Source: Escherichia phage p000y
Length of the DNA stretch: 64,000 bases
Strand: one strand, 5' to 3'
Sequence record: MK047718.1
A program made the translations under genes and the position numbers. This document shows, piece after piece, positions 972 to 46,458 of this stretch. A model generated the notes under the pieces. The model did not search any database. It had not been told where the DNA came from and saw nothing but the letters and a program-made list of their open reading frames with translations. Every line of letters begins with the position of its first letter. The first letter of the stretch is position 1.

Positions 972-1431
972 AAACTATATCAAGGGCGATATTGTCGCCC
1001 TGTTTTCTAAAGGTAATAATATTGCTCATGGGTGTAATTGTTTTCATACAATGGGCGCCGGTGTAGCAGGCCAATTAGCAAAGGCTTATCCAAAAATTTT
1101 AGAAGCCGATAAACTTCAAACCGAATTCGGAGACAAGTCTAAACTCGGGACTTATTCGGTTTATGAAAAATATTTTAAGACCCATAAAGCTTATTGCTTT
1201 AATCTTTATACACAGTTTGAGCCGGGACCTAATTTTGAGTACTCTGCTTTAATGAATTGTATAATAGAATTAAATGAATTCGGAAAGAATAAGATAATAA
1301 AGCCTGTAATTTATATGCCAAGAATTGGTGCAGGTATTGGTGGTGGAAACTGGGATGTCATCGAAGAGATTTTAGATACGTATTCTACTAAACTAGAAAT
1401 TGTGATTGTTGATTGGGAACCGTTATTATGA
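934..1431 (+). CDS. Macro-domain (ADP-ribose binding/processing) protein
   Basis: HGCNCF...MGAGVAGQL glycine-rich loop typical of macro domains; no in-frame ATG at the 5' end, so the start is uncertain (TTG 934 or GTG 964). Confidence 0.5.
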   Translation: MTLIIEDLQQVIKNYIKGDIVALFSKGNNIAHGCNCFHTMGAGVAGQLAKAYPKILEADKLQTEFGDKSKLGTYSVYEKYFKTHKAYCFNLYTQFEPGPNFEYSALMNCIIELNEFGKNKIIKPVIYMPRIGAGIGGGNWDVIEEILDTYSTKLEIVIVDWEPLL

Positions 1432-1640
1432 ATATACATTATCCACATCCATATGACCCAAAGAATAAGGCAGTAATTATTCGTCAATGGGAACGCATTT
1501 GTCGTACCAAATGTCCAATTAATAGTCAACATGATGTAGATAAAGACTACATCGGAACATTCGTTGAATATACCTTTATTGATAAGAAAGGCCATAAACA
1601 ACATGTAGAAGAATATTGCTTAAAGGTGACATGGCTATGA
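1428..1640 (+). CDS. Hypothetical protein, 70 aa
   Basis: ATG 1428 overlaps the upstream stop (ATGA); His/Cys-containing translation. Confidence 0.4.
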   Translation: MNIHYPHPYDPKNKAVIIRQWERICRTKCPINSQHDVDKDYIGTFVEYTFIDKKGHKQHVEEYCLKVTWL

Positions 1641-1843
1641 GTCAAACAAAAATTCTTACAGGTGCTAAATGCGAAAAATGCGAATGGCCTGTAGTTTTTG
1701 CTTTATGCAATGACGAAATGGCTTGTGATTTTGATTATTGGTGTTACTGTTCGAACAAAGGTTGTAGCAATCATAAAGGTGAAGGGTTTTACTCAGGGTT
1801 TTACCCTTACCCAGATTTCGTTAAAGAAGGTGAACCTAAATGA
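1637..1843 (+). CDS. Cys-rich small protein, 68 aa (probable metal-binding)
   Basis: ATGA coupling; multiple CxxC-type pairs (CEKCEW, CYCSNKGC). Confidence 0.4.
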   Translation: MSQTKILTGAKCEKCEWPVVFALCNDEMACDFDYWCYCSNKGCSNHKGEGFYSGFYPYPDFVKEGEPK

Positions 1844-2022
1844 AATTGACTAAAGAAGAGAAAACTAAACTGTTTGAACTTATCCATGACCTATTGGATG
1901 AGCAAGCAGCCACCAATGCGTATGATGAATATGCTCCTTTGACGGACGAAGAATATCAAGCATTGTTGGAATCATTTGACAGGAAAGAACAAGAACTCAT
2001 TGACTACGTGAATTCACTATAA
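1840..2022 (+). CDS. Acidic hypothetical protein, 60 aa
   Basis: ATGA-coupled ORF immediately upstream of tk. Confidence 0.35.
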   Translation: MKLTKEEKTKLFELIHDLLDEQAATNAYDEYAPLTDEEYQALLESFDRKEQELIDYVNSL

Positions 2023-2031
2023 GGGACTCTT

Positions 2032-2613
2032 ATGGCTAGTTTAATTTTTACCTATGCCGCTATGAACGCTGGTAAGTCTGCTTCATTACTTACTGCCGCA
2101 CATAACTATAAAGAACGTGGCATGGGTGTATTAGTTCTTAAACCGGCTATTGATACTCGCGATTCAAAAGGTGAAATAGTCTCTCGTATTGGTATTCGTC
2201 AGGACGCCAATATAATTACAAAAGACATGGATATCTTTGAATTTTATAAATGGGCTGCAGCACAAAAGGATATTCACTGCGTATTTGTTGACGAAGCTCA
2301 GTTCTTAACTACTGAAAAGGTGTATCAACTTAGTCGTATTGTTGACGTGTACAATGTGCCGGTAATGGCATATGGACTACGAACAGATTTTAAAGGTAAT
2401 CTATTTGAAGGTTCTCAAGCATTAATGGCTATTGCCGATAAGCTTGTTGAACTTAAAGGTGTCTGTCATTGTGGTAAAAAGGCCACAATGGTAGCTAGAG
2501 TCACGGAAGACGGACTTCCAATTACAGATGGCAGTCAAATTGAAATTGGTGATACCGATAGATATGTGTCATTATGCCGGAAGCATTGGAATGATTTGAC
2601 AGGGTTGTTATAA
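2032..2613 (+). CDS. tk: Thymidine kinase
   Basis: 193 aa, P-loop AAMNAGKSASLL, C-terminal zinc ribbon CHCGKKA...; T4 tk family. Confidence 0.92.
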   Translation: MASLIFTYAAMNAGKSASLLTAAHNYKERGMGVLVLKPAIDTRDSKGEIVSRIGIRQDANIITKDMDIFEFYKWAAAQKDIHCVFVDEAQFLTTEKVYQLSRIVDVYNVPVMAYGLRTDFKGNLFEGSQALMAIADKLVELKGVCHCGKKATMVARVTEDGLPITDGSQIEIGDTDRYVSLCRKHWNDLTGLL

Positions 2614-2640
2614 ATACTAATATCTAACCAAGAGGTATAT

Positions 2641-2853
2641 ATGCAGCAATTAAACGAAAGACAACTTCGTAATCTTACTGTAACCCAATTAGATGAAATC
2701 CGAAGAGAATTAGGACATTCTATTTCTCATTTAAACGAGGATATCCGTCAAACTGGTTCTAAAGCTGATTATACACGCAAGCGCAAGCTGGAAAAATACC
2801 TCACAGATGTTAAGGCCGTCCAAAGGCGAAAAATAAATACTGGCCAAAATTAA
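2641..2853 (+). CDS. Hypothetical protein, 70 aa
   Basis: ORF with RBS AAGAGG upstream; sits between tk and rI as T4 rI.1 does. Confidence 0.4.
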
Positions 2854-2865
2854 CAGGAGGCCTAT

Positions 2866-3168
2866 ATGGCCTTAAGAGCGATAGCTGTCATAGCGATGCT
2901 GGGGTTTTTTGCAGCAACAACTCCTATCGTTGGTACTGCACATATCGACCCATATTTTGATAACTTTATGGAATCAGGGATTAAAAACGTATATACTTTG
3001 TTTGAAATTCAAAATGTCGAGAATTCTGAAAAATTCTATAAGTATATGGCAAAGCATTACAAAAATAGCCCCTGTGATGATGCATTTGAATGTCATGAAC
3101 AAGGCATAAAAACTGCCAGACAATTTGCCGAGTTCATGAAAATAAAATTAGAGCCTACATCTATCTAA
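2866..3168 (+). CDS. rI: Lysis inhibition regulator rI (membrane-anchored periplasmic protein)
   Basis: 100 aa; N-terminal hydrophobic anchor then DPYFDNFMESGI...; reads as a T4 rI homologue; RBS AGGAGG. Confidence 0.8.
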   Translation: MALRAIAVIAMLGFFAATTPIVGTAHIDPYFDNFMESGIKNVYTLFEIQNVENSEKFYKYMAKHYKNSPCDDAFECHEQGIKTARQFAEFMKIKLEPTSI

Positions 3169-3174
3169 TTTACT

Positions 3175-3203
3175 AGCCCCTTCCGAAAGGTCGGGGCTTT
3201 TTG
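3175..3203 (+). terminator. Rho-independent terminator after rI
   Basis: AGCCCC...GGGGCT stem with inner CC-GAAA-GG, followed by TTTTT. Confidence 0.6.
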
Positions 3204-3213
3204 GCATCTATCA

Positions 3214-3242
3214 GTTTACTTCTCCTCAGGTTGTGTTATAGT
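3214..3242 (+). promoter_or_regulatory. Early sigma70-type promoter (GTTTAC -35, TATAGT -10)
   Basis: GTTTAC 3214-3219, 17-bp spacer, TATAGT 3237-3242. Confidence 0.55.
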
Positions 3243-3269
3243 AAACCTTACTTACTAGAGGAGAACGTT

Positions 3270-3449
3270 ATGTCACGTAAAGAAAAAATTTCTAAGTTAA
3301 TGTTTTTGATTGAAGAGTACGCTAATGCGGTATCTGATTGGGAAAATGCTCATGGTTGCGAAGATGGAGACATCGACATTAACAGAGCTATGAAAAAGAT
3401 GGCCGAAGCCCACACCGAATTGCAAATGTATGTTAACGAGATTATGTGA
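3270..3449 (+). CDS. Hypothetical protein, 59 aa
   Basis: RBS GAGGAG upstream of ATG 3270. Confidence 0.4.
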   Translation: MSRKEKISKLMFLIEEYANAVSDWENAHGCEDGDIDINRAMKKMAEAHTELQMYVNEIM

Positions 3450-3456
3450 GGATATT

Positions 3457-3663
3457 ATGCTTTACGATTATACTGGAAAATCTGAAGACGGTGTACTTGA
3501 ACTTTTACCTGAAAGCGCTGAAGATGATGATATGGTGGTGATGTTTTGTAAAAATGGCCCTGGGGATAAGGGATGGATTTATCTTCGTCAAGAAAATGAC
3601 TTAATTGTTTTGGACCCTAAACAAGTTGAAGAACTTTATCAACATTTAAAACACAATCGGTAG
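3457..3663 (+). CDS. Hypothetical acidic protein, 68 aa
   Basis: RBS GTGAGG upstream of ATG 3457. Confidence 0.4.
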   Translation: MLYDYTGKSEDGVLELLPESAEDDDMVVMFCKNGPGDKGWIYLRQENDLIVLDPKQVEELYQHLKHNR

Positions 3664-3698
3664 TTTACATCTTGGTAGGACTATGTTATAGTAGTCCT
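3663..3698 (+). promoter_or_regulatory. Early promoter with embedded stem-loop (PeSL-like cassette)
   Basis: GTTTAC 3663-3668, TATAGT 3687-3692; 8-bp inverted repeat TAGGACTA/TAGTCCTA spans the -10. Confidence 0.55.
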
Positions 3699-3827
3699 AT
3701 CAAAACAAACGGAGAACAAAATGAAACTTTTGCTTATCGCTTATGTTGTAGTACAATACAATTATCCGATGTTTACTTATAACATGGTAAACGGCATAGT
3801 GAATCTTATTGAAACGAGTATGGTAAA

Positions 3828-4007
3828 ATGACCCGTGAACAAGCTAATAAATTGATGGAACTTATCCGTAACTTACGTGAAGCCGATTCAGATTTGAATG
3901 ATGTAGCTTATCATGCAGTAAATGATAACGAAGACTTTTATGAAAATCAGGTTGATGCTTGTCTGAATGATTTGGTGAATTTTGTTGAAACTTTAATTGG
4001 TGAATAA
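3828..4007 (+). CDS. Hypothetical acidic protein, 59 aa
   Basis: ORF below the track threshold; ATGA-coupled to a preceding 36-aa ORF (3721-3831) that has a strong RBS AACGGAG. Confidence 0.35.
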   Translation: MTREQANKLMELIRNLREADSDLNDVAYHAVNDNEDFYENQVDACLNDLVNFVETLIGE

Positions 4008-4008
4008 T

Positions 4009-4539
4009 ATGAAAACTGTAATTGAAACAACCGAGTTGTTTGGCGATTTATGTATCGAAAAACGTGGTTATGCTTACGTTCTGACACAAGAAGATGATGC
4101 TGTTACTATTCTTCCTATGGAACTGGACAAGATTTTGAAACTCAATCCGCCCGGCCATGCATCTGTAATTAACATTGATGAAGACCTTCAAGTTCGTTTT
4201 TATCACGGTCTTTATAGTGGGGTTAATATCGAAACAGAAGATGAATGCCTTTCTATCAATAATTGGAAAACATTCGTCACTAAGGTGAAAGAATTAATGG
4301 AATCTGAAACAGCCAAAAAGGCCAAACTTCAATGGGCTAAATGCCGTAATGCTTTTATTACAAATCAGGACCGCCCTGACTATACAACAGTCCTAGGCGT
4401 TAATCCTTCTTATGAAGACGGTGATGTCGTAGTTATTCGCCAAATTGATGACCTTCGTCAACATATCATTACATTAGACAAAGATGAAGCAGTTGCTCTT
4501 AAAGCTTATCTTGATTCTATTATCCCAACCTTGAAATAA
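4009..4539 (+). CDS. Hypothetical protein, 176 aa
   Basis: ATG 4009 (the track ORF begins at an upstream TTG). Confidence 0.45.
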   Translation: MKTVIETTELFGDLCIEKRGYAYVLTQEDDAVTILPMELDKILKLNPPGHASVINIDEDLQVRFYHGLYSGVNIETEDECLSINNWKTFVTKVKELMESETAKKAKLQWAKCRNAFITNQDRPDYTTVLGVNPSYEDGDVVVIRQIDDLRQHIITLDKDEAVALKAYLDSIIPTLK

Positions 4540-4549
4540 GGAAATTATT

Positions 4550-5023
4550 ATGATTATCAATGAAAACTCTTGGCACTTTAAAATTTATGCCACGTTTAAT
4601 AGTACATGGAATCGTCCGAAAACGTTGTGTGCTTATTTTTGGAAAACGCTAATCCCGGTATTGGCTGCTTCAATTATTGGATTTGCGATTTTAGCAGCAG
4701 TCACAATCATTGGTCAGGAAATTTTAACTAAATTCTTTGTTTTTAGCAGTCTATGGACATTAGTTCCAGCTTCAATTGGTATAGGCATTTTAACAATATC
4801 AGTAATGGTTCTTATTGCTGTCGGGGCGGTAATTGGTCCATCTTGGTTATTAGACAAATATAACGACAGAAAATATTATAAAGAAATTGAGCTCATTGCA
4901 CAAAACCAAGAACGAATTAAAAATGGACTTGAGCCTATTGAACGTAAGAAATCATTAATAGGTGAATACATTAAAGCTCGTAAAGAAAAAGTCTGTCCTA
5001 CTCTTGAATATAAGGCTAAATGA
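4550..5023 (+). CDS. Integral membrane protein, 157 aa
   Basis: Several long hydrophobic segments (LIPVLAASIIGFAILAAVTIIG..., LVPASIGIGILTISVMVLIAVGAVIG). Confidence 0.5.
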   Translation: MIINENSWHFKIYATFNSTWNRPKTLCAYFWKTLIPVLAASIIGFAILAAVTIIGQEILTKFFVFSSLWTLVPASIGIGILTISVMVLIAVGAVIGPSWLLDKYNDRKYYKEIELIAQNQERIKNGLEPIERKKSLIGEYIKARKEKVCPTLEYKAK

Positions 5024-6009
5024 TGAAAACAATTATGAAAGGCTACTTTGGTAGCCACCTTTATGGAACGTCTACTCCTGAATCTGACGTCGATTTTAAA
5101 GAAATTTATGTCCCTCATGCTCGTGATATCTTGACCGGTAACGTTAAAGAACACATGAGCAAGAACACTAACAACACTGCTTCTAAGAACACAAAAGACG
5201 ACGTGGACCATGAGTTGTATAGTCTCAAATATTTCTTTAAACTAGCTGCAGATGGTGAAACCGTCGCATTAGATATGCTTCACACCCCACAAAGTCTAGT
5301 AGTTAAATCTGATTTGCCTGATGTATGGAAGTATATTCAAGATAACAGGTCTCGTTTCTATACCACTAACATGAAATCTTATTTAGGGTATGTCCGTAAG
5401 CAAGCTTCTAAATATGGTGTCAAGGGTTCTCGACTGGCTGTTCTTCGTCAAGCCCTTAAACGTTCTAATGAATGGGGACAATACTTTGATAATGGTGCAG
5501 TAATTCGTTTATCACATATGAAGAACGTTCTGCCTGTAGGTGAATTTGCTTCATGGGTTGAAACCGAAAACGAGAAAACAGGTAAGCAAACATTCTATAA
5601 TCTGTTGGACCGTAAATTCCAAGACACGTTAACCAATAAAGAGTTCAATGCCATCCTGGTTAAACTGGAAGAGAACTATGGTGAACGTGCTCGTAAGGCG
5701 GAAGCCAACGAAGGTATTGACTGGAAAGCATTGAGTCATGCATGTCGTGGTGGACTTCAACTATTGGAAATTTATAAAACCGGTGACTTGGTTTACCCAC
5801 TTCAGGATGCTCCATTTATTCTCGATGTTAAGCTTGGTAAACATACGTTTAAAACTGTACAAGAATTCCTAGAAGATATTGTTGACCAAGTTGAACATGC
5901 GTCAGAACAAGCTGCCAAGAATGGTATGCAACAAAAAGTAGATATGAGTTTCTGGGATGATTTCCTTGAGCAAGTCTATCTCGAAAATCATAATTCTTAC
6001 TATAAATAA
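5020..6009 (+). CDS. Pol-beta-superfamily nucleotidyltransferase-fold protein, 329 aa
   Basis: GS-x(n)-DhD motif GSHLYGTSTPESDVDF plus a downstream acidic ETVALDML, the hallmark of minimal NTases; ATGA-coupled to the membrane protein. Confidence 0.5.
   Translation: MMKTIMKGYFGSHLYGTSTPESDVDFKEIYVPHARDILTGNVKEHMSKNTNNTASKNTKDDVDHELYSLKYFFKLAADGETVALDMLHTPQSLVVKSDLPDVWKYIQDNRSRFYTTNMKSYLGYVRKQASKYGVKGSRLAVLRQALKRSNEWGQYFDNGAVIRLSHMKNVLPVGEFASWVETENEKTGKQTFYNLLDRKFQDTLTNKEFNAILVKLEENYGERARKAEANEGIDWKALSHACRGGLQLLEIYKTGDLVYPLQDAPFILDVKLGKHTFKTVQEFLEDIVDQVEHASEQAAKNGMQQKVDMSFWDDFLEQVYLENHNSYYK
6001..6008 (+). promoter_or_regulatory. Candidate late promoter (TATAAATA)
   Basis: Exact TATAAATA about 33 nt upstream of the 6041 start. 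Confidence 0.35.
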
Positions 6010-6040
6010 ATAGATAAATAACCATTCACTTGAGGTAAAT

Positions 6041-6307
6041 ATGAAAAAATTAGTAATTGGTTTATTCGCAGTAATGATGGCGTTCTCTGTTGGTGCTACC
6101 ACGGGTGCAGGAGCTGGTGGTAACCAGTCTTCTGGGCCTTCCAATGGTTCGGTAAATGCATCACATTCTCAGGGTATTGAGAATATCAAATCAAGCTATA
6201 TTAATAGCACGGCTGGACAAGCAACTGAAGCATGGTCAAAGGGCCGAGTAGTTACTCACTCTGTATTCTGTGATATGCCTAATTATGTTGCTAAGTGCGA
6301 TAAGTAA
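6041..6307 (+). CDS. Small secreted Gly/Ser-rich protein, 88 aa
   Basis: Signal peptide MKKLVIGLFAVMMAFSVGA; RBS TGAGG. Confidence 0.5.
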   Translation: MKKLVIGLFAVMMAFSVGATTGAGAGGNQSSGPSNGSVNASHSQGIENIKSSYINSTAGQATEAWSKGRVVTHSVFCDMPNYVAKCDK

Positions 6308-6311
6308 ATGT

Positions 6312-6333
6312 GGGGACCTTCGGGTCCCTTTAG
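6312..6333 (+). terminator. Rho-independent terminator (UUCG tetraloop hairpin)
   Basis: GGGACC-TTCG-GGTCCC followed by TTT. Confidence 0.6.
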
Positions 6334-6358
6334 GGGGTTAAAATATTTTAAAAAAGTA

Positions 6359-6387
6359 GTGTACATGCTTTTAGGATATGTTATTAT
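6359..6387 (+). promoter_or_regulatory. Early promoter (GTGTAC -35, TATTAT -10)
   Basis: 17-bp spacing; followed by the TATAGACCTATC element. Confidence 0.5.
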
Positions 6388-6425
6388 AGACCTATCGAAA
6401 CGAAATGAGTAAATTGGAGAATAAA

Positions 6426-7406
6426 ATGTTCAACGTTCAAATCAAAAAAGGTATCTATCGTAATAACGAAATCTCTGGATCTTATGTCGCCACAAAGACA
6501 TGGTTCCCAGCAAAGCTTAATCCTGAATGTTCCCACTTAGGTGATGGTAAAATTTTCGTTATGATTGATGGTTCTGAACGTGGAGTATGGGTCTTCAAAT
6601 CAGACATCGTAATGGAAGGAGTTGAGACATCACCAGTTGCAGTTGTTGAAAGCACTGAAGATATGAAAACTCGTATCAACAAACGCTTTAAAGTAATGAA
6701 CATGATGACGAATGGCATTATCGATGGCAAAATTCGTTCACTCATCATTTCAGGTGCAGCCGGTATTGGTAAGACGTATTCTCTGGATAAAGCACTTAAT
6801 AATGCTAATGATAATGGTTTCATCAAATACAAAAGCATTAATGGTAAAATCTCTGGTATCGGCCTTTACGAACAACTTTGGCTCAACCGTGATGCAGACA
6901 GCGTTCTCTTAATCGACGATGTTGATGTATTCTCTGATATGGATATCTTGAACCTTCTTAAAGCAGCATTAGATACCGGAGATAAACGCAAAGTTTGTTG
7001 GAGCACTGCGTCATCTTATCTTGATGATAAGGGTATTGATAAAGAATTTGAGTTTGAAGGTACTATCGTTTTCATTACAAACGTTGATATCGATAAAGAG
7101 TTAGAACGTGGTTCGAAACTTGCCCCACACCTTCAAGCTTTAGTATCTCGTTCAGTGTATCTCGACCTTGGAGTACACTCTAATGAAGAGATTATGGTTC
7201 GAGTTGAAGACGTAATATTATCTACTGACATGATGCAGAAACGTGGTCTGACTGATGCTGAAACGTACAAAGCATTGTCCTGGATGAAGGCTAACGTATC
7301 TCGTCTTCGCAATGTATCATTACGTACGGCTCTTTATGTAGCAGATTTTATTTCAACTGATAAAGATGGTTGGGAGGAAATCTCCGAAGTAACTTTACTG
7401 AAATAA
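6426..7406 (+). CDS. AAA+/P-loop ATPase, about 326 aa
   Basis: Walker A GAAGIGKT and Walker B LLIDDVD; start placed at ATG 6426 with RBS GGAG (the track ORF starts at 6405). Confidence 0.55.
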   Translation: MFNVQIKKGIYRNNEISGSYVATKTWFPAKLNPECSHLGDGKIFVMIDGSERGVWVFKSDIVMEGVETSPVAVVESTEDMKTRINKRFKVMNMMTNGIIDGKIRSLIISGAAGIGKTYSLDKALNNANDNGFIKYKSINGKISGIGLYEQLWLNRDADSVLLIDDVDVFSDMDILNLLKAALDTGDKRKVCWSTASSYLDDKGIDKEFEFEGTIVFITNVDIDKELERGSKLAPHLQALVSRSVYLDLGVHSNEEIMVRVEDVILSTDMMQKRGLTDAETYKALSWMKANVSRLRNVSLRTALYVADFISTDKDGWEEISEVTLLK

Positions 7407-7543
7407 GCTTATAGGAAGTTCTGAGGTAACAAAAGCCATAAAGATGAATAATCATATGGCTTACCTCAAAGAAGGACACCAGGAACCTACTGAGGGCATA
7501 GAAATATTTAAAATAATGATGTACAAATCAAAGAGGATATGTT

Positions 7544-7831
7544 ATGGATTTTATGCAAAAAATTAAAGCCGCAGTCGAACTCTATGCTCATCGTATAGTT
7601 AGTTCTACGATGCAATATAGCGAGGAGGTTCGCCAGGACTCTTCCTTGAAAGGAAAAACTAAAGCCTTAATTACCTTAGATCGTTTGCAAAAGAATGCCA
7701 TAGAGATGCTCCAGTACGACAAGGGTGTATATAAGAAAGAACAGGAAGAGAAACTTAAATCTGAAAAATTACAAAAAATCCCGAAGTCTGTTTGGTTCAG
7801 TGGAAAAAATACCGAAAAAAGTTTCTTTTAG
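7544..7831 (+). CDS. Hypothetical protein, 95 aa
   Basis: RBS AGAGGA upstream of ATG. Confidence 0.4.
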   Translation: MDFMQKIKAAVELYAHRIVSSTMQYSEEVRQDSSLKGKTKALITLDRLQKNAIEMLQYDKGVYKKEQEEKLKSEKLQKIPKSVWFSGKNTEKSFF

Positions 7832-7833
7832 TT

Positions 7834-7868
7834 GTTTACAAGGTCTATGGTTATGTTATTATAGACCT
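7834..7868 (+). promoter_or_regulatory. Early promoter with stem-loop (PeSL-like)
   Basis: GTTTAC 7834-7839, TATTAT 7857-7862; inverted repeat AGGTCTAT/ATAGACCT. Confidence 0.55.
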
Positions 7869-7889
7869 ATCAACTACTGGAGGTAAAAC

Positions 7890-8417
7890 ATGAACGCTAA
7901 AGATATTTTCAACCTGGTAAATTATAACGACGGTAAATTTAAATCTGAAGCACAAAGCAAGTTCTTTAACGATGTTGCTTATGGTAACGAGATTACCGTG
8001 GATGGAGGTCAGATTTTCAAATCTCGCTGGAATTGGATTGTTATCATCGATTCAGTTGGAATTGTGGAAGTCTACAAAAACACTAACAAAAAACGTACAT
8101 TATTCTGGTCTCGTGAAACTAACGAGCAGTACAAAAAGGATAAAGCATCTCGTTTATCCAAAGTAACCCAGGAAGATATCGACTTCATCAAGAAAGATAT
8201 CGAGATGTACGAAAATTTAATTGCTGAAGACCAGGCAGTACTCGATAAGTTTGATGAAATTAAAGCTTCTCGTGAAATCCCTGACTTCATGAAAGAAACA
8301 GTAAACGAACGATACGCTCTCACTTCAGAACGTATTGCAAACTACACAAAACAGAAAGCAGAACGTATTAGTACTCTTCGGAAATTTGAAGAACGTTTAA
8401 AGACGGTTCACGCATAA
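7890..8417 (+). CDS. Hypothetical protein, 175 aa
   Basis: RBS GGAGG upstream; C-terminal coiled-coil-like region. Confidence 0.45.
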   Translation: MNAKDIFNLVNYNDGKFKSEAQSKFFNDVAYGNEITVDGGQIFKSRWNWIVIIDSVGIVEVYKNTNKKRTLFWSRETNEQYKKDKASRLSKVTQEDIDFIKKDIEMYENLIAEDQAVLDKFDEIKASREIPDFMKETVNERYALTSERIANYTKQKAERISTLRKFEERLKTVHA

Positions 8418-8419
8418 AC

Positions 8420-8444
8420 GCTTTACCCAAGGACGGGTTATAAT
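8420..8444 (+). promoter_or_regulatory. Middle-type promoter (MotA-box-like GCTTTA plus TATAAT)
   Basis: GCTTTA 8420-8425, 13 nt, TATAAT 8439-8444; the spacer carries the CCAAGGACGG motif. Confidence 0.45.
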
Positions 8445-8479
8445 GGTTTTGAGTTCCAATTCAATCTGAGGAAATAGTT

Positions 8480-9475
8480 ATGAGCATTACATCTGATGCG
8501 ATAAAACATGAAATTAACGGTTTATGTGCTTCACAGATTAAAGTGTGGTTTAAAGACCATAATGATCGCAGAGCGCTTAATTATGAACGAATTGCTATCC
8601 AAGTTCATCAATTACTGGTTAGTAAATTTGATTTTCATATGCCGTCTGAAATCTATACTAATCTACCGCAAGCGCTTATTAAAGCGTGTAAAGGCTACGG
8701 AAAATCAATGGCTGATGGAATCTTCAGCGCGCTGAATAAACTTAACGTTCTGTCGATGATTAACTCTAACAATATCCTGCGTAATCTAGGACGTACTGAT
8801 TTGTTCGGTCGTGAACAGTGTAAAATGCCTTTGAAATGGATTGTTGCTCATCTTAACGAGAACCAAACACGTTTTATGGCCGTAACAGCACGTTTACAAA
8901 TGGGCCTAGATCGTCAGATGAACTTTAAAACTCATCCACGTTATTCAGGTTCAACTGACTTTTATAAATGTGAGCTTCAAAAGATTGCAGGCAAAACTGT
9001 CTTAGTAGTTCGTGTAACGTTTGAAGGACGTCGTCAAGGATATTTTGACCTAATCGGCTCTGGTCTCAAACATTGTGGATTTATCGACGAAGTTGATATC
9101 AAGCGAGACGGCACTGGATACCGTATTGGGTATGTTTGTACTCTTAAAGAAGAGATTTCAGGACCAGCACCAGGACTAAAAGACGTTAGATATAAAGACG
9201 AGCTAGTTGAAGAAATAAAAGAAGTTGAATACGATATCAACCAAGAAGATGCTCTTAAAGACCTTATTGACGAACTAAACCAAGACGTTATTCCGGTTCA
9301 GAAATTTGAATCAAAACATGCTGAGCAAATCAAATACTTTGAAGCTTTGATTAACGAACTTAATGTAACTATTCAACAGACTGACGATGAAATCTCACGA
9401 TTAGCAGGCTTAAATGGTAAAAATAAAACAGAACGAGCTAATCTTATTCAAGTAGTAAAACTTCTTAAGGAATGA
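8480..9475 (+). CDS. Hypothetical protein, 331 aa, with C-terminal coiled coil
   Basis: RBS GAGGAAA upstream; heptad-like C-terminus. Confidence 0.45.
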   Translation: MSITSDAIKHEINGLCASQIKVWFKDHNDRRALNYERIAIQVHQLLVSKFDFHMPSEIYTNLPQALIKACKGYGKSMADGIFSALNKLNVLSMINSNNILRNLGRTDLFGREQCKMPLKWIVAHLNENQTRFMAVTARLQMGLDRQMNFKTHPRYSGSTDFYKCELQKIAGKTVLVVRVTFEGRRQGYFDLIGSGLKHCGFIDEVDIKRDGTGYRIGYVCTLKEEISGPAPGLKDVRYKDELVEEIKEVEYDINQEDALKDLIDELNQDVIPVQKFESKHAEQIKYFEALINELNVTIQQTDDEISRLAGLNGKNKTERANLIQVVKLLKE

Positions 9476-9504
9476 TGTACAACCAAGGATGGTTGGAGTA
9501 TAAT
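9475..9504 (+). promoter_or_regulatory. Early promoter, copy of the repeated CAACCAAGGATGGTTGGAGTATAAT cassette
   Basis: ATGTAC -35, TATAAT 9499-9504; palindromic spacer CAACCA-AGGA-TGGTTG. Confidence 0.55.
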
Positions 9505-9530
9505 AAATTTTTCAACATGAGGAATATAAA

Positions 9531-10490
9531 ATGGCTTTTATTACACGTAGAGAACTTATCAAAGAATTTACCTCGAACGCATATACCCCAGGACCTAATC
9601 CTATCCGTATGCCTGTAAAGACTCCTGAAGAGATTGAGGAAATCTGTTCATATTATGGGATTACTTCTCGTAAGTTTACTCAATTTGAATGCGTTACTAA
9701 CACACCCGTTAAAGAGTTCATTAAAAATGGTGAGTTCAGCCGTTTATTAGCCAAACAGAAACTTCGTAATTTTTGTATCGGCGGTGAAGGACAATATTTC
9801 GCTAAACAGTTCCGAAATAACCTTAACAATCTGATGGCCATTGCTTCTCGTATTCGTCCTCAAGCAATTAACATGAAACATTTGAAATATACTTATGATA
9901 AGTTAGAAATCATGGTTATCAGTGAGAATGAGTTCACTCTTACATATAAACCTAAGAATGATAACGTTGCTCGTGTATTCCACCAAGCGTTGGAAGTTTT
10001 AGGTGATAATATCCACCAGATTAAAGCGATTTATTCTCGTGAGCTTAATATTATCAACCCTATCAAGAATAAGGGCCATATCGCTATCCAGGCTCGTGTA
10101 TCTATTGGTAAAAAGGTTCCTGCGCCGTGGTGGCACAAAGACTCTGAATACTATCAAAATCTTAAAAAGGAAAATGCAACGTTTGAAGCATCGCTTACTG
10201 GGACCCCAATTGAACAGGCCGAAGTCCTAAGTGCTTATTCTACTTCGGGTAAATCAATGTTTAAAGGTTTGCCAAATGTGTGCAAACTGTCTGCAGTAAA
10301 ACTAAATGTTTCTAATGACCTTCTTCCGGCCGAAGATTACCATTACAATCAAATCAAGGCCACTATGGACCAACTGTCTGTTGAACTTGACAAAGCACAA
10401 GCTAAGCTTCGTGATGCTCAACAAGTAGTTACCAATCTCCAGTTGCAGTACTCTAAACTTTTTAACGCAATGAATGCATTAAAATCATAA
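9531..10490 (+). CDS. Hypothetical protein, 319 aa, with C-terminal coiled coil
   Basis: RBS GAGGAA upstream; C-terminus ...QAKLRDAQQVVTNLQLQYSKL. Confidence 0.45.
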   Translation: MAFITRRELIKEFTSNAYTPGPNPIRMPVKTPEEIEEICSYYGITSRKFTQFECVTNTPVKEFIKNGEFSRLLAKQKLRNFCIGGEGQYFAKQFRNNLNNLMAIASRIRPQAINMKHLKYTYDKLEIMVISENEFTLTYKPKNDNVARVFHQALEVLGDNIHQIKAIYSRELNIINPIKNKGHIAIQARVSIGKKVPAPWWHKDSEYYQNLKKENATFEASLTGTPIEQAEVLSAYSTSGKSMFKGLPNVCKLSAVKLNVSNDLLPAEDYHYNQIKATMDQLSVELDKAQAKLRDAQQVVTNLQLQYSKLFNAMNALKS

Positions 10491-10494
10491 ATCA

Positions 10495-10524
10495 GTTTAC
10501 AACCAAGGATGGTTGGAGTATAAT
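10495..10524 (+). promoter_or_regulatory. Early promoter, second copy of the repeated cassette
   Basis: GTTTACAACCAAGGATGGTTGGAGTATAAT, identical to the 52491-52520 copy. Confidence 0.55.
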
Positions 10525-10552
10525 GAATCTATCTTAACGAGAGGAAAATATT

Positions 10553-11497
10553 ATGACACGTTCACATTACATTGATTATTTTGCAGGTCTTATCGCTAAT
10601 GTTCATGCCCAACGTGCTTCTGGTTCATTAGGATTTGATGTTCCACACCGAGATGTAGTAAGTGGTATTCTTCGCGATTTTGGTACATATACCGGCCAAG
10701 AAAATCATATCTGTAAAGATACTCAAAATGCGTATTCTCATTCATTAGGGACACTGCTTCAATGGTTCAAACGTTCTCGTTTATTATCTTCTACTGTAGC
10801 TCGCGATAACATTAAAAACTTTATGAAACCGAGCTTTATTAAATCTGTGACATCTAAAACCGATTTGGTTGAATTCACTATTGTTAATGATGTTAAAAAG
10901 ACTCATTTAGCTGATTGGTTATCTACCATTCCTGAAACTAAATTTGCTGATAAATTTGCTTGTGAATTCAATAACCAAGTGAATATGCTTTTTAAACATT
11001 CTCGTAAATTATTCACTGGCGGTGATGGTCGTACAAATAAAGTTCATGTTAAAGATTGGGTTACTGCAGTATTCAAACCAACCGGTAATGGTAACGCATC
11101 ATTATCAATTGATATCCAGGTTCCTTATTACTACTCACGTAATCTCGGTACCATGAAAGCCGAAGAAATTAAGAAGCACAATAAAACCGTTCGTTCGCTG
11201 TCTTATAAACTTCGTATGATGTTACAGACTATGGATGTTGTTGAAATGTTCGACGAAACCGAAGATAACGGTTCAATGTTATTCAGTTCTCGAATTAAAA
11301 TTAAACTGAAGAACCCTAATGTGTTTAAGCCTATTAAAGAACCTAAAGCAGAAAAGGTTGATATCATGGCTGAAGAACGTGAGTACCTCAAATCTCGTCT
11401 GAAAGAAGTCGAAGCCCAGATTGCAGAACAAACTAAATCGTTAAAAGCTCTGAATGCGAAAGCGGATGGTTTACGAAATGCCATTGAGGTGTTATAA
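10553..11497 (+). CDS. Hypothetical protein, 314 aa, with C-terminal coiled coil
   Basis: RBS GAGAGGAAA upstream; C-terminus ...LKEVEAQIAEQTKSLKALNAKADGLRNAIEVL. Confidence 0.45.
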   Translation: MTRSHYIDYFAGLIANVHAQRASGSLGFDVPHRDVVSGILRDFGTYTGQENHICKDTQNAYSHSLGTLLQWFKRSRLLSSTVARDNIKNFMKPSFIKSVTSKTDLVEFTIVNDVKKTHLADWLSTIPETKFADKFACEFNNQVNMLFKHSRKLFTGGDGRTNKVHVKDWVTAVFKPTGNGNASLSIDIQVPYYYSRNLGTMKAEEIKKHNKTVRSLSYKLRMMLQTMDVVEMFDETEDNGSMLFSSRIKIKLKNPNVFKPIKEPKAEKVDIMAEEREYLKSRLKEVEAQIAEQTKSLKALNAKADGLRNAIEVL

Positions 11498-11802
11498 TGA
11501 AACTACGTCTTCTAGAGGATATTGATATGAGCACTAATCATGGCTTGGTTAAGTTTATTGACGATAGTTCAAAGATTGAATTTGTTCAGCGAGATAAAAT
11601 CCACGGTGAAGAAGAGTTCGTTCCTCCGGCATGGAACGAAATAATGAAAATGGTTGAACGACGTGAAAATGCTGCCAAATCGGCAGCAAAACATCCATGC
11701 CCGGAATGTGGAACTATCCAAGTCCAACTGGTTAACTGGACCACTGATAACTTGAAATTGAAATGCCGTAAATGCTTCCACAAATTTGAGAGAACATTAT
11801 AA
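11497..11802 (+). CDS. Zinc-ribbon protein, 101 aa
   Basis: CPEC ... CRKC pairs in the C-terminal half. Confidence 0.45.
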   Translation: MKLRLLEDIDMSTNHGLVKFIDDSSKIEFVQRDKIHGEEEFVPPAWNEIMKMVERRENAAKSAAKHPCPECGTIQVQLVNWTTDNLKLKCRKCFHKFERTL

Positions 11803-12215
11803 TGAGATATAGCCTTCGTTGTTTTATCGCAGCTTTAGTTTTTGCTATTATTCCATTCATTTGGAACAGCCAGAATACTTACATGGAAACTAAAGTAATT
11901 CCTGTGGAGGTAGTGGAATTAATCTCAGGTCAATCTACAGGAAAATATTCTAAATTAGAATTTATTGCAGTCTATAAAGATGAGCAAGGACGAGTTTTTG
12001 ACAGGCATGTATCACCATCGTTTTATACGCTTCTGAATAAAGGTGATACGATAGCTATAGAAATTCGTGAGATGGATATCAAACAAACTACTAAAGATAA
12101 CTTGATTTGGTTCTTTGGTACGGTGTTGTTGGTTTCTATCTGTATCACAGGTTTTATTACATGTATTGTATTTGGCATTGCATATTTAATCGATGAAAGG
12201 AAAAATAATGTTTAA
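11802..12215 (+). CDS. Membrane protein, 137 aa
   Basis: N-terminal and C-terminal hydrophobic helices. Confidence 0.45.
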   Translation: MRYSLRCFIAALVFAIIPFIWNSQNTYMETKVIPVEVVELISGQSTGKYSKLEFIAVYKDEQGRVFDRHVSPSFYTLLNKGDTIAIEIREMDIKQTTKDNLIWFFGTVLLVSICITGFITCIVFGIAYLIDERKNNV

Positions 12216-12471
12216 AGTGTACGGGTACGACTCTACTATTCATAAATGCATTTATTGTGATAATGCGAAACGATTGCTGACTGTTAAGAAACAGCCATTT
12301 GAATTCATTAATGTTATGCCAGAAAAAGGTGTTTTTGATGATGAGAAAATTGCTGAGCTTCTGGTTAAGCTTGGACGTGAATCACAAGTCGGATTGACTA
12401 TGCCCCAAGTGTTTGCTCCTGATGGAACTTCGATTGGTGGCTTTGACCAACTACGAGAATATTTTAAATGA
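12208..12471 (+). CDS. nrdC: Thioredoxin/glutaredoxin NrdC
   Basis: 87 aa starting MFKVYGYDS..HKC.YCDNAKRLL, which reads as T4 NrdC; RBS AAGGAAA. Confidence 0.85.
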   Translation: MFKVYGYDSTIHKCIYCDNAKRLLTVKKQPFEFINVMPEKGVFDDEKIAELLVKLGRESQVGLTMPQVFAPDGTSIGGFDQLREYFK

Positions 12472-12824
12472 CATATTCATTAAATCTTAAAGATTTCCAA
12501 GATGTATACGAAGTTTGTGCCAATGAACTTGGTCCTGATGCTCCAACTATTATTGAAGTTTTAAATGTGCTCCCTTCGTCATTAGCTTACGAAGCCAAAT
12601 CATGGGGTTGGAACGACACTGTCGTTCGTGATGACCTTTACGTCCTGATGAACGATATGATGGTTAAAAAGGCAGAACCGGTTGCACCAATGGTTACCAT
12701 TACCGTTGAAGAATATAATCGCCTGCAAGCCATTGAAGAGCTTCTGTGGAACATTGAATGTGACCTGCCATCAGGGCTAGAATCCTGGATTGATTATGAA
12801 GAGCTCAATAAACTCCGGGGTTAA
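12468..12824 (+). CDS. Hypothetical protein, 118 aa
   Basis: ATGA-coupled to nrdC. Confidence 0.45.
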   Translation: MTYSLNLKDFQDVYEVCANELGPDAPTIIEVLNVLPSSLAYEAKSWGWNDTVVRDDLYVLMNDMMVKKAEPVAPMVTITVEEYNRLQAIEELLWNIECDLPSGLESWIDYEELNKLRG

Positions 12825-12873
12825 ACCGTGGTATTCTGCTCGATGGGAGACTGTCGAGCCAGACGTCGAAACA

Positions 12874-12903
12874 GTTTACAACGACGAAGAAACATGTTAT
12901 GAT
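12874..12903 (+). promoter_or_regulatory. Early promoter (GTTTAC, TATGAT)
   Basis: GTTTAC 12874-12879, 18-bp spacer, TATGAT 12898-12903. Confidence 0.45.
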
Positions 12904-12952
12904 GAACCTTCAATAAATGAATTAATTGATATGGAGATGGGAAGAGATTATT

Positions 12953-13123
12953 ATGCAAGTTAAATTATTGTACCGTTTATTAAAAAATGGCAAGCACGAT
13001 TGGTATTTGCTTATTAAAACCGATCCGAATTTTTTCTCTGGGCAACCATTTACAGTTCGTCCTACTAAACGTCAGCTTCGCAAAGCTAAACGTTCTCATC
13101 GTAACTTTTATAGAGAATATTGA
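12953..13123 (+). CDS. Small basic protein, 56 aa (paralogue of 13548-13727)
   Basis: C-terminus RPTKRQLRKAKRSHRNFYREY resembles RPTKKMIRQYKRFHRDFYNVY in the downstream ORF. Confidence 0.4.
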   Translation: MQVKLLYRLLKNGKHDWYLLIKTDPNFFSGQPFTVRPTKRQLRKAKRSHRNFYREY

Positions 13124-13124
13124 T

Positions 13125-13538
13125 ATGAATATTTCTGAAACTCGCGGTAAATGGTTCAAGATTGTTAAAGAAGATGAAGAACTACAAGTCAAGTTTCCTG
13201 AATTAAAGAAAGGAACAATCATCAAGGTAATTGGTACTACTACCGAAGATGGTTATGGCGACCATGGCATTATCGAAGTGATGTTGAACACAGGTGAGAA
13301 ACTTTGCATCTATGACCGTGATACTTGTCTTTGGTGCTTCTGGGAATCCCATTCAATAGATGAACTCGAAGAAATTGACCAAGTAGTTTGTGACAGTGAA
13401 CTTGGCAAATTTGAAGGTGAACGTATTTCTTATGCTTTAGCTAAATTAGCCGCCCAAGAAAATAATGACGGTTATGAAGGTAATCTGATGCAAGCCGCAG
13501 CGGAATACATTGAATATTTAGAAAGACGTTTAAGTTAA
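13125..13538 (+). CDS. Hypothetical acidic protein, 137 aa
   Basis: ATG 13125 immediately after the upstream stop. Confidence 0.45.
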   Translation: MNISETRGKWFKIVKEDEELQVKFPELKKGTIIKVIGTTTEDGYGDHGIIEVMLNTGEKLCIYDRDTCLWCFWESHSIDELEEIDQVVCDSELGKFEGERISYALAKLAAQENNDGYEGNLMQAAAEYIEYLERRLS

Positions 13539-13547
13539 AGGTTTATT

Positions 13548-13727
13548 ATGAAAACTGAATTATTTTATGGTGAAAGAAAAAATGGGCAAAAATCCTGGAA
13601 ATTTATTATGATTGGGGCCCCAAACAATCCAAATATGAGGACTTCAATTATTTCAGTAACACGTCCTACTAAGAAAATGATTCGTCAATATAAACGTTTT
13701 CATCGAGACTTTTATAACGTTTACTAA
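13548..13727 (+). CDS. Small basic protein, 59 aa (paralogue of 12953-13123)
   Basis: Below the track size cutoff; shared C-terminal basic motif. Confidence 0.4.
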   Translation: MKTELFYGERKNGQKSWKFIMIGAPNNPNMRTSIISVTRPTKKMIRQYKRFHRDFYNVY

Positions 13728-13729
13728 AT

Positions 13730-13760
13730 TATAAATACCCTTATCTATTTAAGGTAAGGG
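13730..13760 (+). promoter_or_regulatory. Late promoter TATAAATA plus RBS-sequestering hairpin upstream of gene 49
   Basis: TATAAATA 13730-13737; inverted repeat CCCTTA (13738-13743) / TAAGGG (13755-13760) covers the Shine-Dalgarno. Confidence 0.55.
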
Positions 13761-13766
13761 TTTATC

Positions 13767-14240
13767 ATGTTATTATCAGGCGCAAAATATAAAGAAGAAA
13801 AACAAAAATTTTATGATGCACAGAACGGTAAGTGTCCTATTTGCCACCGTGAATTAGACCCTGATGTTCAAGGTAACCATCTTGACCATGACCACGAATT
13901 AAATGGGCCAAAAGCCGGTAGAGTTCGTGGATTACTCTGTAATCTGTGCAACGCAGCAGAAGGTCAAATGAAGCATAAGTTCAACCGTTCCGGTTTGAAA
14001 GGTCAAAACGTTGACTACTTAGAATGGCTTGAAGCTCTTCTTGCTTATTTGAAACAAGATTATTCTGATAATAATATCCATCCTAATTTTGTTCCAGACA
14101 AAACTAAAGAGTTCTCAAGACTAGGTAAAGAGGAAATGATGGCCGAGATGCTTCAAAGAGGATTTGAATATAATGAATCTGATACTAAAACACAATTAAT
14201 AGCTTCATTCAAAAAGCAACTTAGAAAGAGTTTAAAATGA
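13767..14240 (+). CDS. 49: Endonuclease VII (Holliday junction resolvase)
   Basis: 157 aa; CPICHRELD...HLDHDHELNG...CNLCN reads as T4 gp49. Confidence 0.9.
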   Translation: MLLSGAKYKEEKQKFYDAQNGKCPICHRELDPDVQGNHLDHDHELNGPKAGRVRGLLCNLCNAAEGQMKHKFNRSGLKGQNVDYLEWLEALLAYLKQDYSDNNIHPNFVPDKTKEFSRLGKEEMMAEMLQRGFEYNESDTKTQLIASFKKQLRKSLK

Positions 14241-16054
14241 AAATTGAAAAAGAAATTGAAGGATTAATTCGTAAAACTAATAAAGATCTTTTGAACGAGA
14301 ATGCTAATAAAGATTCTCGTGTTTTTCCAACTCAACGGGACCTTATGGCTGGTATTGTGTCTAAGCACATTGCCAAAAATATGGTCCCGTCTTTTATTAT
14401 GAAAGCGCATGAAAGTGGAATTATCCATTTTCATGATATTGATTATTCCCCTGCTCTTCCATTTACTAATTGCTGTTTAGTAGATTTAAAAGGAATGCTT
14501 GAGAACGGGTTTAAGCTTGGTAATGCGCAGATTGAAACACCTAAATCAATCGGTGTTGCTACTGCAATTATGGCACAAATTACTGCGCAAGTTGCTTCTC
14601 ATCAATATGGCGGAACGACTTTTGCGAATGTAGATAAAGTACTTTCTCCTTATGTTAAACGCACCTATGCAAAACATATCGAGGACGCGGAAAAATGGCA
14701 AATCGCTGATGCACTGAATTATGCTCAATCTAAAACAGAAAAAGATGTATATGATGCATTCCAAGCTTATGAATATGAAGTAAATACTCTCTTTAGTTCA
14801 AACGGGCAAACGCCTTTTGTAACGATTACATTTGGTACAGGAACTGACTGGGCTGAGCGAATGATTCAGAAGGCAATTCTTAAAAACCGCATTAAAGGTC
14901 TCGGCCGTGATGGAATAACTCCTATTTTCCCTAAGCTTGTTATGTTCGTTGAAGAAGGCGTTAATCTTTACAAAGACGATCCGAACTATGATATTAAACA
15001 GCTTGCTCTAGAGTGCGCAAGCAAAAGGATGTATCCTGATATTATTTCAGCTAAGAATAATAAAGCTATCACCGGTTCATCTATTCCTGTTTCTCCGATG
15101 GGTTGCCGTAGTTTCTTGAGCGTATGGAAAGATTCGACTGGTAATGAAATTCTTGATGGACGTAATAATCTTGGTGTTGTAACGCTGAATCTTCCTCGCA
15201 TTGCGTTAGATTCTTATATTGGAACACAATTTAACGAACAGAAATTTGTTGAATTATTCAATGAACGAATGGATTTGTGTTTTGAAGCTTTGATGTGTAG
15301 AATTAGTTCTTTAAAAGGAGTTAAAGCAACTGTTGCTCCTATTCTTTACCAAGAAGGTGCATTCGGGGTTCGTCTTAAACCGGATGATGATATAATTGAG
15401 TTATTTAAAAACGGTAGAAGTTCAGTGTCCCTAGGATACATTGGTATTCACGAATTGAATATTCTTGTTGGTCGTGATATTGGACAAGAAATTTTATCTA
15501 AAATGAATGCTCGTCTTAAGCAGTGGACTGAAAGAACCGGATTTGCTTTTAGCTTGTATTCTACTCCTGCTGAAAACTTGTGTTATCGCTTCTGTAAACT
15601 TGATACCGAAAAATATGGAAGTGTAAAGGATGTTACTGATAAAGGCTGGTACACTAACAGTTTCCATGTTTCAGTAGAAGAAAATATTACTCCGTTTGAA
15701 AAGATTTCCCGCGAAGCCCCATATCATTTCATTGCGACAGGTGGTCACATTTCTTATGTTGAACTTCCTGATATGAAAAATAACCTAAAAGGTCTTGAGG
15801 CTGTATGGGATTATGCTGCACAACATTTAGATTATTTTGGTGTTAATATGCCAGTAGATAAATGTTTTACATGTGGAAGTACCCATGAAATGACTCCGAC
15901 TGAAAACGGATTTGTTTGTTCAGTTTGTGGAGAAACTGATCCTAAAAAGATGAACACAATAAGAAGAACATGCGGCTACCTGGGAAATCCGAACGAACGC
16001 GGATTTAATCTCGGTAAAAATAAAGAAATAATGCATAGGGTTAAACACCAATGA
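14237..16054 (+). CDS. nrdD: Anaerobic ribonucleoside-triphosphate reductase NrdD
   Basis: 605 aa; glycyl-radical motif RTCGYLG and C-terminal zinc ribbon CFTCGS...CSVCG; no intron interruption. Confidence 0.92.
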   Translation: MKIEKEIEGLIRKTNKDLLNENANKDSRVFPTQRDLMAGIVSKHIAKNMVPSFIMKAHESGIIHFHDIDYSPALPFTNCCLVDLKGMLENGFKLGNAQIETPKSIGVATAIMAQITAQVASHQYGGTTFANVDKVLSPYVKRTYAKHIEDAEKWQIADALNYAQSKTEKDVYDAFQAYEYEVNTLFSSNGQTPFVTITFGTGTDWAERMIQKAILKNRIKGLGRDGITPIFPKLVMFVEEGVNLYKDDPNYDIKQLALECASKRMYPDIISAKNNKAITGSSIPVSPMGCRSFLSVWKDSTGNEILDGRNNLGVVTLNLPRIALDSYIGTQFNEQKFVELFNERMDLCFEALMCRISSLKGVKATVAPILYQEGAFGVRLKPDDDIIELFKNGRSSVSLGYIGIHELNILVGRDIGQEILSKMNARLKQWTERTGFAFSLYSTPAENLCYRFCKLDTEKYGSVKDVTDKGWYTNSFHVSVEENITPFEKISREAPYHFIATGGHISYVELPDMKNNLKGLEAVWDYAAQHLDYFGVNMPVDKCFTCGSTHEMTPTENGFVCSVCGETDPKKMNTIRRTCGYLGNPNERGFNLGKNKEIMHRVKHQ

Positions 16055-19935: not shown

Positions 19936-19956
19936 GAATTGAGCCAAGAGGTACTT

Positions 19957-20514
19957 ATGACTGAACAAAAACCTAAAAATAACTATGTGAATAATAAAGA
20001 GCTTCTCGCCGCTATAATCGAGTGGAAAAAGGAGCTCTTAAATAATAAAGACCCAAACAAAATTATTCGTCAGAATGATACCATCGGTTTAGCAATTATG
20101 CTTATCGCCGAAGGCCTGTCCAAACGTTTCAACTTTTCAGGATATACCCAGTCTTGGAAGCAGGAGATGATTGCAGATGGGATTGAAGCCTCTATTAAGG
20201 GACTTCATAATTTCGACGAAACTAAGTACAATAACCCACATGCATACATAACTCGAGCTTGTTTTAATGCTTTTGTCCAACGTATCAAAAAAGAACGTAA
20301 GGAAGTTGCAAAGAAATATAGTTACTTCGTTCATAATGTCTACGACAGTCATGACGATGATATGGTAGCGTTGGTAGATGAAACGTTTATTCAAGACATC
20401 TACGATAAAATGACGCATTATGAAGAATCCGCTTATAAAGCTCCTGGGGCTGAAAAGAAGGAAGTTGTTAGCGATTCGCCTAGTTTGGATTTTTTATATG
20501 AGGATGACAATTGA
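19957..20514 (+). CDS. 55: Late-transcription sigma factor gp55
   Basis: 185 aa from ATG 19957 (RBS GAGG); ...[13 protein letters not shown]...[50 protein letters not shown]... reads as T4 gp55. Confidence 0.9.
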
Positions 20515-46005: not shown

Positions 46006-46219
46006 TTTTTATGCATGGCAAAAAGCCGGGAGACCGGCTAATAAAGCATTCGGCTCTGATGGATATAATACTAGACTCCACTGGAAATTTAATACTCCAG
46101 ATGATTATTCTCCGGTAATAATTAACGGTGATGTTGTTATATTAGCTAAATTCGGATATTTTATTGTCCCGAAGAAATTCATTATAAATACACCTGTAAT
46201 TAAACAACAAAGGAGTTAA
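45995..46219 (+). CDS. Hypothetical protein, 74 aa
   Basis: ATG 45995 within the track ORF 45881-46219. Confidence 0.35.
   Translation: MKLDFYAWQKAGRPANKAFGSDGYNTRLHWKFNTPDDYSPVIINGDVVILAKFGYFIVPKKFIINTPVIKQQRS
46183..46190 (+). promoter_or_regulatory. Late promoter TATAAATA upstream of soc
   Basis: Exact TATAAATA 32 nt before the soc ATG, with RBS AAAGGAG; consistent with soc being a late capsid gene. Confidence 0.55.
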
Positions 46220-46221
46220 TT

Positions 46222-46458
46222 ATGGGTGGTTATGTAAACATCAAAACCTTTACGCATCCTGCTGGTGAAGGTAAAGAAGTTAAAGGTATGGAAGTTTCTG
46301 TTCCGTTTGAAATCTATTCTAACGAGCATCGTATTGCAGATTCTCATTACCAAATCTTTCCATCAGAAAAGGCAGCTTATTCTACTGTAGTTTCTGATGC
46401 AGCTGACTGGAAAACTAAGAACGCTGCAATGTTTACCCCTACACCAGTAAGTGGTTAA
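46222..46458 (+). CDS. soc: Small outer capsid protein Soc
   Basis: 78 aa; ...GYVNIKTF...YQIFPSEKAAYSTV... reads as T4 Soc. Confidence 0.85.
   Translation: MGGYVNIKTFTHPAGEGKEVKGMEVSVPFEIYSNEHRIADSHYQIFPSEKAAYSTVVSDAADWKTKNAAMFTPTPVSG

Follow-up and report, generated by a model that had tools for sequence, protein, structure and literature searches.

The sequence ahead of gene 49 in Escherichia phage p000y raises the question of whether this phage times its recombination endonuclease VII as T4 does, that is, by hiding the ribosome-binding site (RBS) in an RNA hairpin that the late transcript no longer contains. We addressed it in a window of 64,000 nucleotides, the whole stretch of record MK047718.1 that was analysed (features in Table 1). 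In T4, translational control of gene 49 was described by Barth, Powell, Trupin and Mosig (1988, Genetics 120:329). Two reviews that cite this work, PMC3014915 and PMC2988022, place gene 49, together with e, soc and I-TevI, among the genes in which an RNA helix on upstream-initiated transcripts sequesters the Shine-Dalgarno sequence (SD) or the AUG; the '39' in the list of PMC2988022 is evidently 49, because Barth 1988 is cited there. According to the same papers, the upstream-initiated RNA folds and is silent, and the late RNA lacks the 5' arm. A first-pass annotation of the window had described this T4 mechanism and proposed the same layout here. Our analysis supports that interpretation: the hairpin and promoter of gene 49 very probably form the RB69-type counterpart of the switch that times gene 49 expression in T4. 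With the T4 mechanism known since 1988 and the RB69 promoter predicted in 2006, the finding in this window is already known and adds no new principle.

Table 1. Features of the gene 49 region, and the late sigma factor gene, with positions in the 64,000-nt window
Feature	Position	Strand	Basis or remark
Candidate early sigma-70 type promoter, TTTACA-17-TATGAT with TG	12875-12903	+	10/12 match; weak evidence
pin	about 13125-13538	+	Pfam Inhibitor_I24
59-aa ORF, DUF7279, RB69ORF087c homologue	13548-13727	+	long transcripts would enter the hairpin through this ORF
Late promoter motif TATAAATA	13730-13737	+	exact match
Hairpin 5' arm ACCCUUAUCU, anti-SD mimic	13737-13746	+	folding, covariation; first 6 nt upstream of predicted late start
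Predicted late transcription start, A	13743	+	6 nt after the motif; geometry from PMC1524935
Hairpin loop AUUUA	13747-13751	+	folding; sequence and length vary freely among relatives
Hairpin 3' arm AGGUAAGGGU	13752-13761	+	sequence, folding; contains SD UAAGGG (13755-13760)
Gene 49, recombination endonuclease VII, 157 aa	13767-14240	+	ORF; Pfam Endonuclease_7 PF02945 and Endonuc-dimeris PF09124
Middle-promoter-like MotA-box site, TGCTTCA-N13-TATAAT	14149-14174	+	inside gene 49, 63 nt before nrdD start
nrdD	14237-16054	+	local gene order, after gene 49
gp55 homologue, late sigma factor that would read TATAAATA	19939-20514	+	phrog_234 'late sigma transcription factor', E = 3.9e-68

The promoter is the first element to consider. 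PMC1524935 gives TATAAATA as the late promoter consensus at positions -13 to -6 relative to the start, with the T at -13 weakly conserved among T4-like phages (Nolan et al.), and the motif ahead of gene 49 reproduces this octamer, including the ATAAATA core, letter for letter and with no -35 element, just as had been reported for it. It lies on the coding strand, with the gene 49 ATG 30 nt past its last A, and at the homologous site in RB69 (47750-47792) Nolan et al. 2006 predicted a late promoter, Pl:47792. The late sigma factor is encoded by the phage itself; its gene was matched in the PHROGs search and had no matching Pfam model. The number of octamers does not exceed chance (4 observed in 64 kb vs 7.4 expected), and what is non-random about them is their promoter-like placement: all four are on the coding strand, an ORF starts 25-33 nt past the last A of each, and they are therefore placed like promoters. 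The shorter core ATAAATA is strongly depleted in the window, with 9 copies (7 of them on the + strand) vs 30 +/- 5.9 expected, an avoidance compatible with stray late promoters being selected against. Two of the other octamers precede small ORFs of unknown function, one at 2609 (2609-2643; phrog_1826, 70 aa) and one at 6001 (6001-6043; phrog_2243, 88 aa, with a signal-like N-terminus), the latter within a run of three overlapping tandem ATAAATA cores (6001-6020).

The hairpin begins at the last A of the motif. CCCTTA (13738-13743) and TAAGGG (13755-13760), the two arms named in the first-pass annotation, are both present and complementary, but the full helix is longer than was described there: it has 10 bp, pairing A13737-U13746 with A13752-U13761, and includes one U.G wobble, U13744.G13754. 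The SD, UAAGG(G), is buried in the 3' arm 6 nt before the ATG, and hence the hairpin does cover the RBS of a gene that both Pfam domains identify as endonuclease VII; another UAAGG, at 13750-13754, is paired in part. The minimum free energy (MFE) of the hairpin is -12.9 kcal/mol (13730-13775), as compared with -6.1 +/- 2.2 for dinucleotide shuffles (z = -3.1, with 2/200 as good), and a refold of 13730-13772 gave z = -3.4, with 0/200 shuffles as good. In an Rfam search of the whole window, no family reached the gathering threshold.

The two proposed forms of the transcript differ strongly in predicted structure. Initiation at A13743 would drop 6 of the 10 nt of the 5' arm and leave 4, such that, by prediction, the late start falls inside the 5' arm and the helix is unformable in late RNA. 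The predicted +1 is an A in 26 of 28 distinct relatives, and A13743 and the T that follows it are invariant alignment columns. Folding of the two forms, which had been suggested as a check, gave the expected difference: RNAs starting at 13743 or 13744 have an open centroid structure (MFE -1.5), whereas longer RNAs retain the hairpin at its full -12.9 kcal/mol. To open the region around the ATG (-18 to +5), the ensemble cost amounts to 15.3 kcal/mol for an RNA spanning -150 to +40 vs 3.4 for the late RNA; across the 28 versions the mean cost of opening the RBS is 15.8 (long) vs 4.4 (late) kcal/mol, and across 17 more distant versions it is 10-23 (long) vs 2-5.5 (late). The late RNA is thus predicted to be unfolded and to lack the hairpin.

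Late promoters inside RBS-sequestering hairpins are also found at T4 soc, e (lysozyme), I-TevI, I-TevII as well as I-TevIII, and at Aeh1 mobE, with sequences unrelated to that of gene 49. In the window, soc (46222-46458, + strand, Pfam Soc) is preceded by TATAAATA at 46183-46190, and a hairpin spanning 46191-46228 follows immediately 3' of it, with 13 bp (46191-46203 paired with 46216-46228), a free energy of -12.4 kcal/mol and z = -3.6. The two hairpins differ in what they hide: that of soc buries the AUG and has the SD AAGGAG in its loop, whereas that of gene 49 buries the SD. At the octamers at 2609 and 6001 no significant RBS-masking structure was found (-2.9 and -1.0 kcal/mol, z about 0), and among the four octamers in the window the hairpin therefore occurs only at gene 49 and soc, both known users of the device in T4.

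Relatives of the locus were collected in two IMG/VR scans with gp49, which provided 44 loci and then more distant ones, at protein identities from 99% to 41%. The first set holds 46 loci (the window, T4 and the 44 from IMG/VR) with 28 distinct sequences, and 17 further distinct sequences bring the collection to 45 versions. In each of the 45 distinct T4-like versions, xxTAAATA abuts or sits in a hairpin whose 3' arm carries the SD or the AUG, and in each, as in the window, a stable helix sequesters the RBS (SD and/or start codon). Within the first set, the motif directly 5' of the hairpin is xATAAATA, ATTAAATA or CTAAATA (46/46 loci), the last being the reported Aeh1 late consensus (PMC1524935), and in 45 of 46 loci it is precisely the motif's last A that forms the first pair of the stem. 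First-set stems have 8-12 bp and free energies of -8.5 to -13.9 kcal/mol, their predicted late RNAs are almost unstructured, and in 28/28 versions the end of the 3' arm is either separated from the start codon by 0-6 nt or reaches at most 2 nt into it. The design is retained in the 17 further distinct lineages. One locus (L106; IMGVR_UViG_2974770551_000001, 562-603) has TATAAATA in the loop and the whole 5' arm, AUUCCUCCAAUA, upstream of the promoter, and its hairpin pairs with a strong GGAGG SD; this layout, too, agrees with the mechanism, and another explanation for it is hard to find. With the covariance model R1, the gene 49 site was the sole match in every source, including the 64-kb window.

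Covariation indicates that the helix is under selection as a structure. In an alignment made from sequence only with MAFFT (A1, 28 distinct sequences), 89.6% of the cells at paired positions are paired, vs 69.0 +/- 1.8% in shuffles (0/500 as high) and 39-52% in slid controls, and double changes occur in 6/9 pairs. Alignment with R1 gave 91.0% paired for 30 distinct sequences (A2; shuffles 70.5 +/- 1.7%, 0/500; slid controls 38-48%; double changes in 7/9 pairs) and 91.8% for the extended set of 37 (A5; shuffles 67.8 +/- 1.6%, 0/500; slid controls 39-47%; double changes in 8/9 pairs). Alignments made with a covariance model are biased towards pairing because the structure is what they are fitted to, but the sequence-only MAFFT alignment gave nearly the same numbers; conversely, in a few divergent versions (L038-L040, L047) MAFFT placed the 3' arms wrongly, and realignment with R1 left the conclusion unchanged. 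The three outer pairs in A1 show all of CG, GC, AU and UA, with 55 compensated cells vs 16.5 +/- 4.4 in shuffles, and A5 has 81 vs 23.8 +/- 4.0. The inner pairs are less variable because their 3' side is the SD (AGGU[A/G]A). The U.G wobble is retained in 22-26 sequences, as would be expected if the pairing takes place in RNA and not in DNA.

The closest counterpart of the locus is that of RB69 (Mosigvirus): from pin to nrdD (13300-14400) the window has 97.9% nucleotide identity to it, with 750 phage records matching, and 13690-13790 is identical. T4 gene 49 is orthologous and in the same position, with the same SD masking and with the late promoter fused to the 5' arm alike, and its late start is predicted at 46,879 (- strand); in RB69, A13743 corresponds to about 47,755 (- strand). 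The annotated likeness to T4 in layout is therefore borne out, with the motif fused to the 5' arm, the SD in the 3' arm and the predicted start inside the 5' arm. As to conservation of the letters themselves, the claim stands for the 35-nt block ATAAATACCCTTATCTATTTAAGGTAAGGGTTTAT, from ATAAATA through the hairpin, which is nucleotide-identical between T4 and the window amid diverging flanks, and for the relatives in the form of compensatory changes; it does not stand for the full octamer, which in T4 is AATAAATA (first base A) and in the window the canonical TATAAATA (first base T).

T4 and the window also differ around this block. Upstream of gene 49 lies a separate DUF7279 ORF in the window and the end of pin in T4. 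The last 17 amino acids of T4 Pin, DRMIQQYKRLHQMFYNT (T4 locus L003, pin 4898-5383), resemble the C-terminus of the DUF7279 ORF, KKMIRQYKRFHRDFYNVY, which suggests that T4 pin is a fusion product of a deletion in which the control region of gene 49 was left intact. The ORF itself (phrog_3272) has a paralogue about 600 nt upstream (about 12953-13123; 37% identity, E = 8e-12). Inside the gene, T4 has a demonstrated internal start, the GUG at codon 53 from which the nested 12-kDa gp49' is made, whereas the window has GTT there (13923-13925). Most relatives, among them close kin of T4 and some that are 90% identical to the window's gp49, have GTA, GTT, GTC or ATT as codon 53, and GTG occurs only in T4, L008 and three Aeh1-like loci. 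Judging from these codons, the nested product is not expected in the window and, with GTG so rare among relatives, would therefore lie outside the conserved design.

Time-course data from T4 agree with a delay between RNA and protein. In the T4 transcriptome and proteome time course (Table S2), the gene 49 transcript is classed as early. The END7 protein has zero label-free quantification (LFQ) signal at 0, 1, 3, 5 and 8 min, and first appears at 12 min in 2/3 replicates; its signals at 20 and 30 min are strong, a profile that resembles those of the baseplate proteins gp48 and gp54. Early gene 49 RNA together with protein from 12 min is the outcome expected from the switch.

Where long transcripts would come from in p000y is less clear-cut. 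A site homologous to the candidate early promoter of Table 1 is annotated as a T4-early-like promoter in OL960576. On the other hand, the upstream sigma-70 promoter scan found 14 sites vs 14.7 expected, which is chance level and makes early promoter candidates weak, and we therefore infer the source of the long transcripts. A MotA-box search of the + strand from 1271 to 14148 found no middle-promoter-like site; the single nearby one lies inside gene 49, and nrdD may thus have its own middle promoter and need not depend on read-through. Across the window the MotA-box middle-promoter pattern is enriched (19 vs 6.0 expected).

In the switch as we envisage it, where we infer the start site, the read-through of early transcripts in the phage and the effect on translation, early and middle transcripts started upstream would cross the DUF7279 ORF and carry both arms of the hairpin. 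In such long RNA the SD UAAGGG would pair with the anti-SD-like 5' arm, 30S subunits would bind poorly, and endonuclease VII would not be made early despite the presence of its mRNA. After the onset of replication, RNA polymerase with gp55 would use the late promoter and start at about A13743, and the resulting RNA, with 6 of the 10 nt of the 5' arm missing and no hairpin, would be translated. Transcripts that start upstream of the hairpin at late times, which the first-pass annotation had regarded as a refutation, are compatible with this model; what matters is late 5' ends at about 13743.

The alternative that survives best, although we consider it unlikely, is that the hairpin is mainly an intrinsic (rho-independent) terminator of the early nrdC-pin-ORF087c unit, with gene 49 silent early for lack of transcription. 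It resembles one in being a stem-loop right behind a stop codon with UUUAUC 3' of the stem; TransTerm called a terminator in RB69 (47738-47760, '49<--RB69ORF087c', confidence 98; Nolan 2006 supplement), the hairpin carries an ARNOLD terminator label in MK373778, and the middle-promoter-like site ahead of nrdD would spare that gene the need for transcription from upstream. However, the U-tract is short in the window (tail UUAUCAUG) and is not conserved, as the stem abuts the ATG in most clades, no more than 0-2 U occur among the 4 nt next to the stem in 23/28 versions, and Aeh1-type and L047 versions have 1-4 U in the 8 nt that follow. The stem is AU-rich, with 4 G-C pairs in 10, and our local terminator scan did not call the hairpin or any other terminator-like site on the + strand from 12904 to 13767. 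Furthermore, the stem is tied to SD and promoter: the SD is always in the 3' arm and the 5' arm always in promoter register, neither of which a terminator requires. Since T4 gene 49 RNA is classed as early by RNA-seq, transcription does pass the hairpin in T4. If termination were efficient, gene 49 would be reached by few long transcripts, and blocking their translation would be less important; in the T4 and RB69 clade the hairpin may have a partial, secondary role as terminator or attenuator.

Stable 3' hairpins shield mRNAs from exonucleases, and Barth et al. reportedly also discussed cleavage near the gene 49 hairpin. It could accordingly be asked whether the hairpin serves above all in the processing or stability of mRNA, as a 3'-end protector of the upstream message or as an RNase target, with SD masking incidental to it. 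This strikes us as very improbable, as a stability role leaves the fixed late-promoter register and the constant inclusion of SD or AUG unexplained. A RegB site was rejected, since the hairpin contains no GGAG.

An inverted repeat with 10-bp arms and a loop of 5 nt is on the short side for extrusion as a cruciform. We give hardly any credence to the idea that the inverted repeat acts as DNA, be it as such a small cruciform or as a repressor operator overlapping the late promoter, and rejected it: while the repeat directly abuts the promoter and I-TevI sets a precedent by autorepression at its own late promoter (PMC2988022), the stem changes freely in sequence with pairing kept and with four pair types at the outer positions, which marks a structure rather than a site that a protein binds in a sequence-specific way, the loop is variable in both sequence and length, and the wobble that is kept would be a T.G mismatch in DNA.

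The reading of the hairpin as part of a translational timing switch has implications beyond this phage. With at least 45 versions, down to 41% gp49 identity, and no Rfam family, the element may be described as a family-wide cis-regulatory RNA of gene 49 in Straboviridae that in the T4 and RB69 clade doubles as a leaky terminator or 3'-end protector, a combined proposal that we put forward tentatively and regard as somewhat doubtful. If it is true, one 25-nt element sets read-through, upstream mRNA stability and the timing of gp49 translation together. The 'terminator' labels in RB69 and several GenBank records would, we argue, miss the main role of the hairpin, which, with its clear covariation, belongs to those non-coding features around gene 49 that T4-like phages conserve most strictly. 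Endonuclease VII cleaves branched DNA, and made early it would destroy recombination and replication intermediates that the phage needs; a delay until packaging is therefore sensible.
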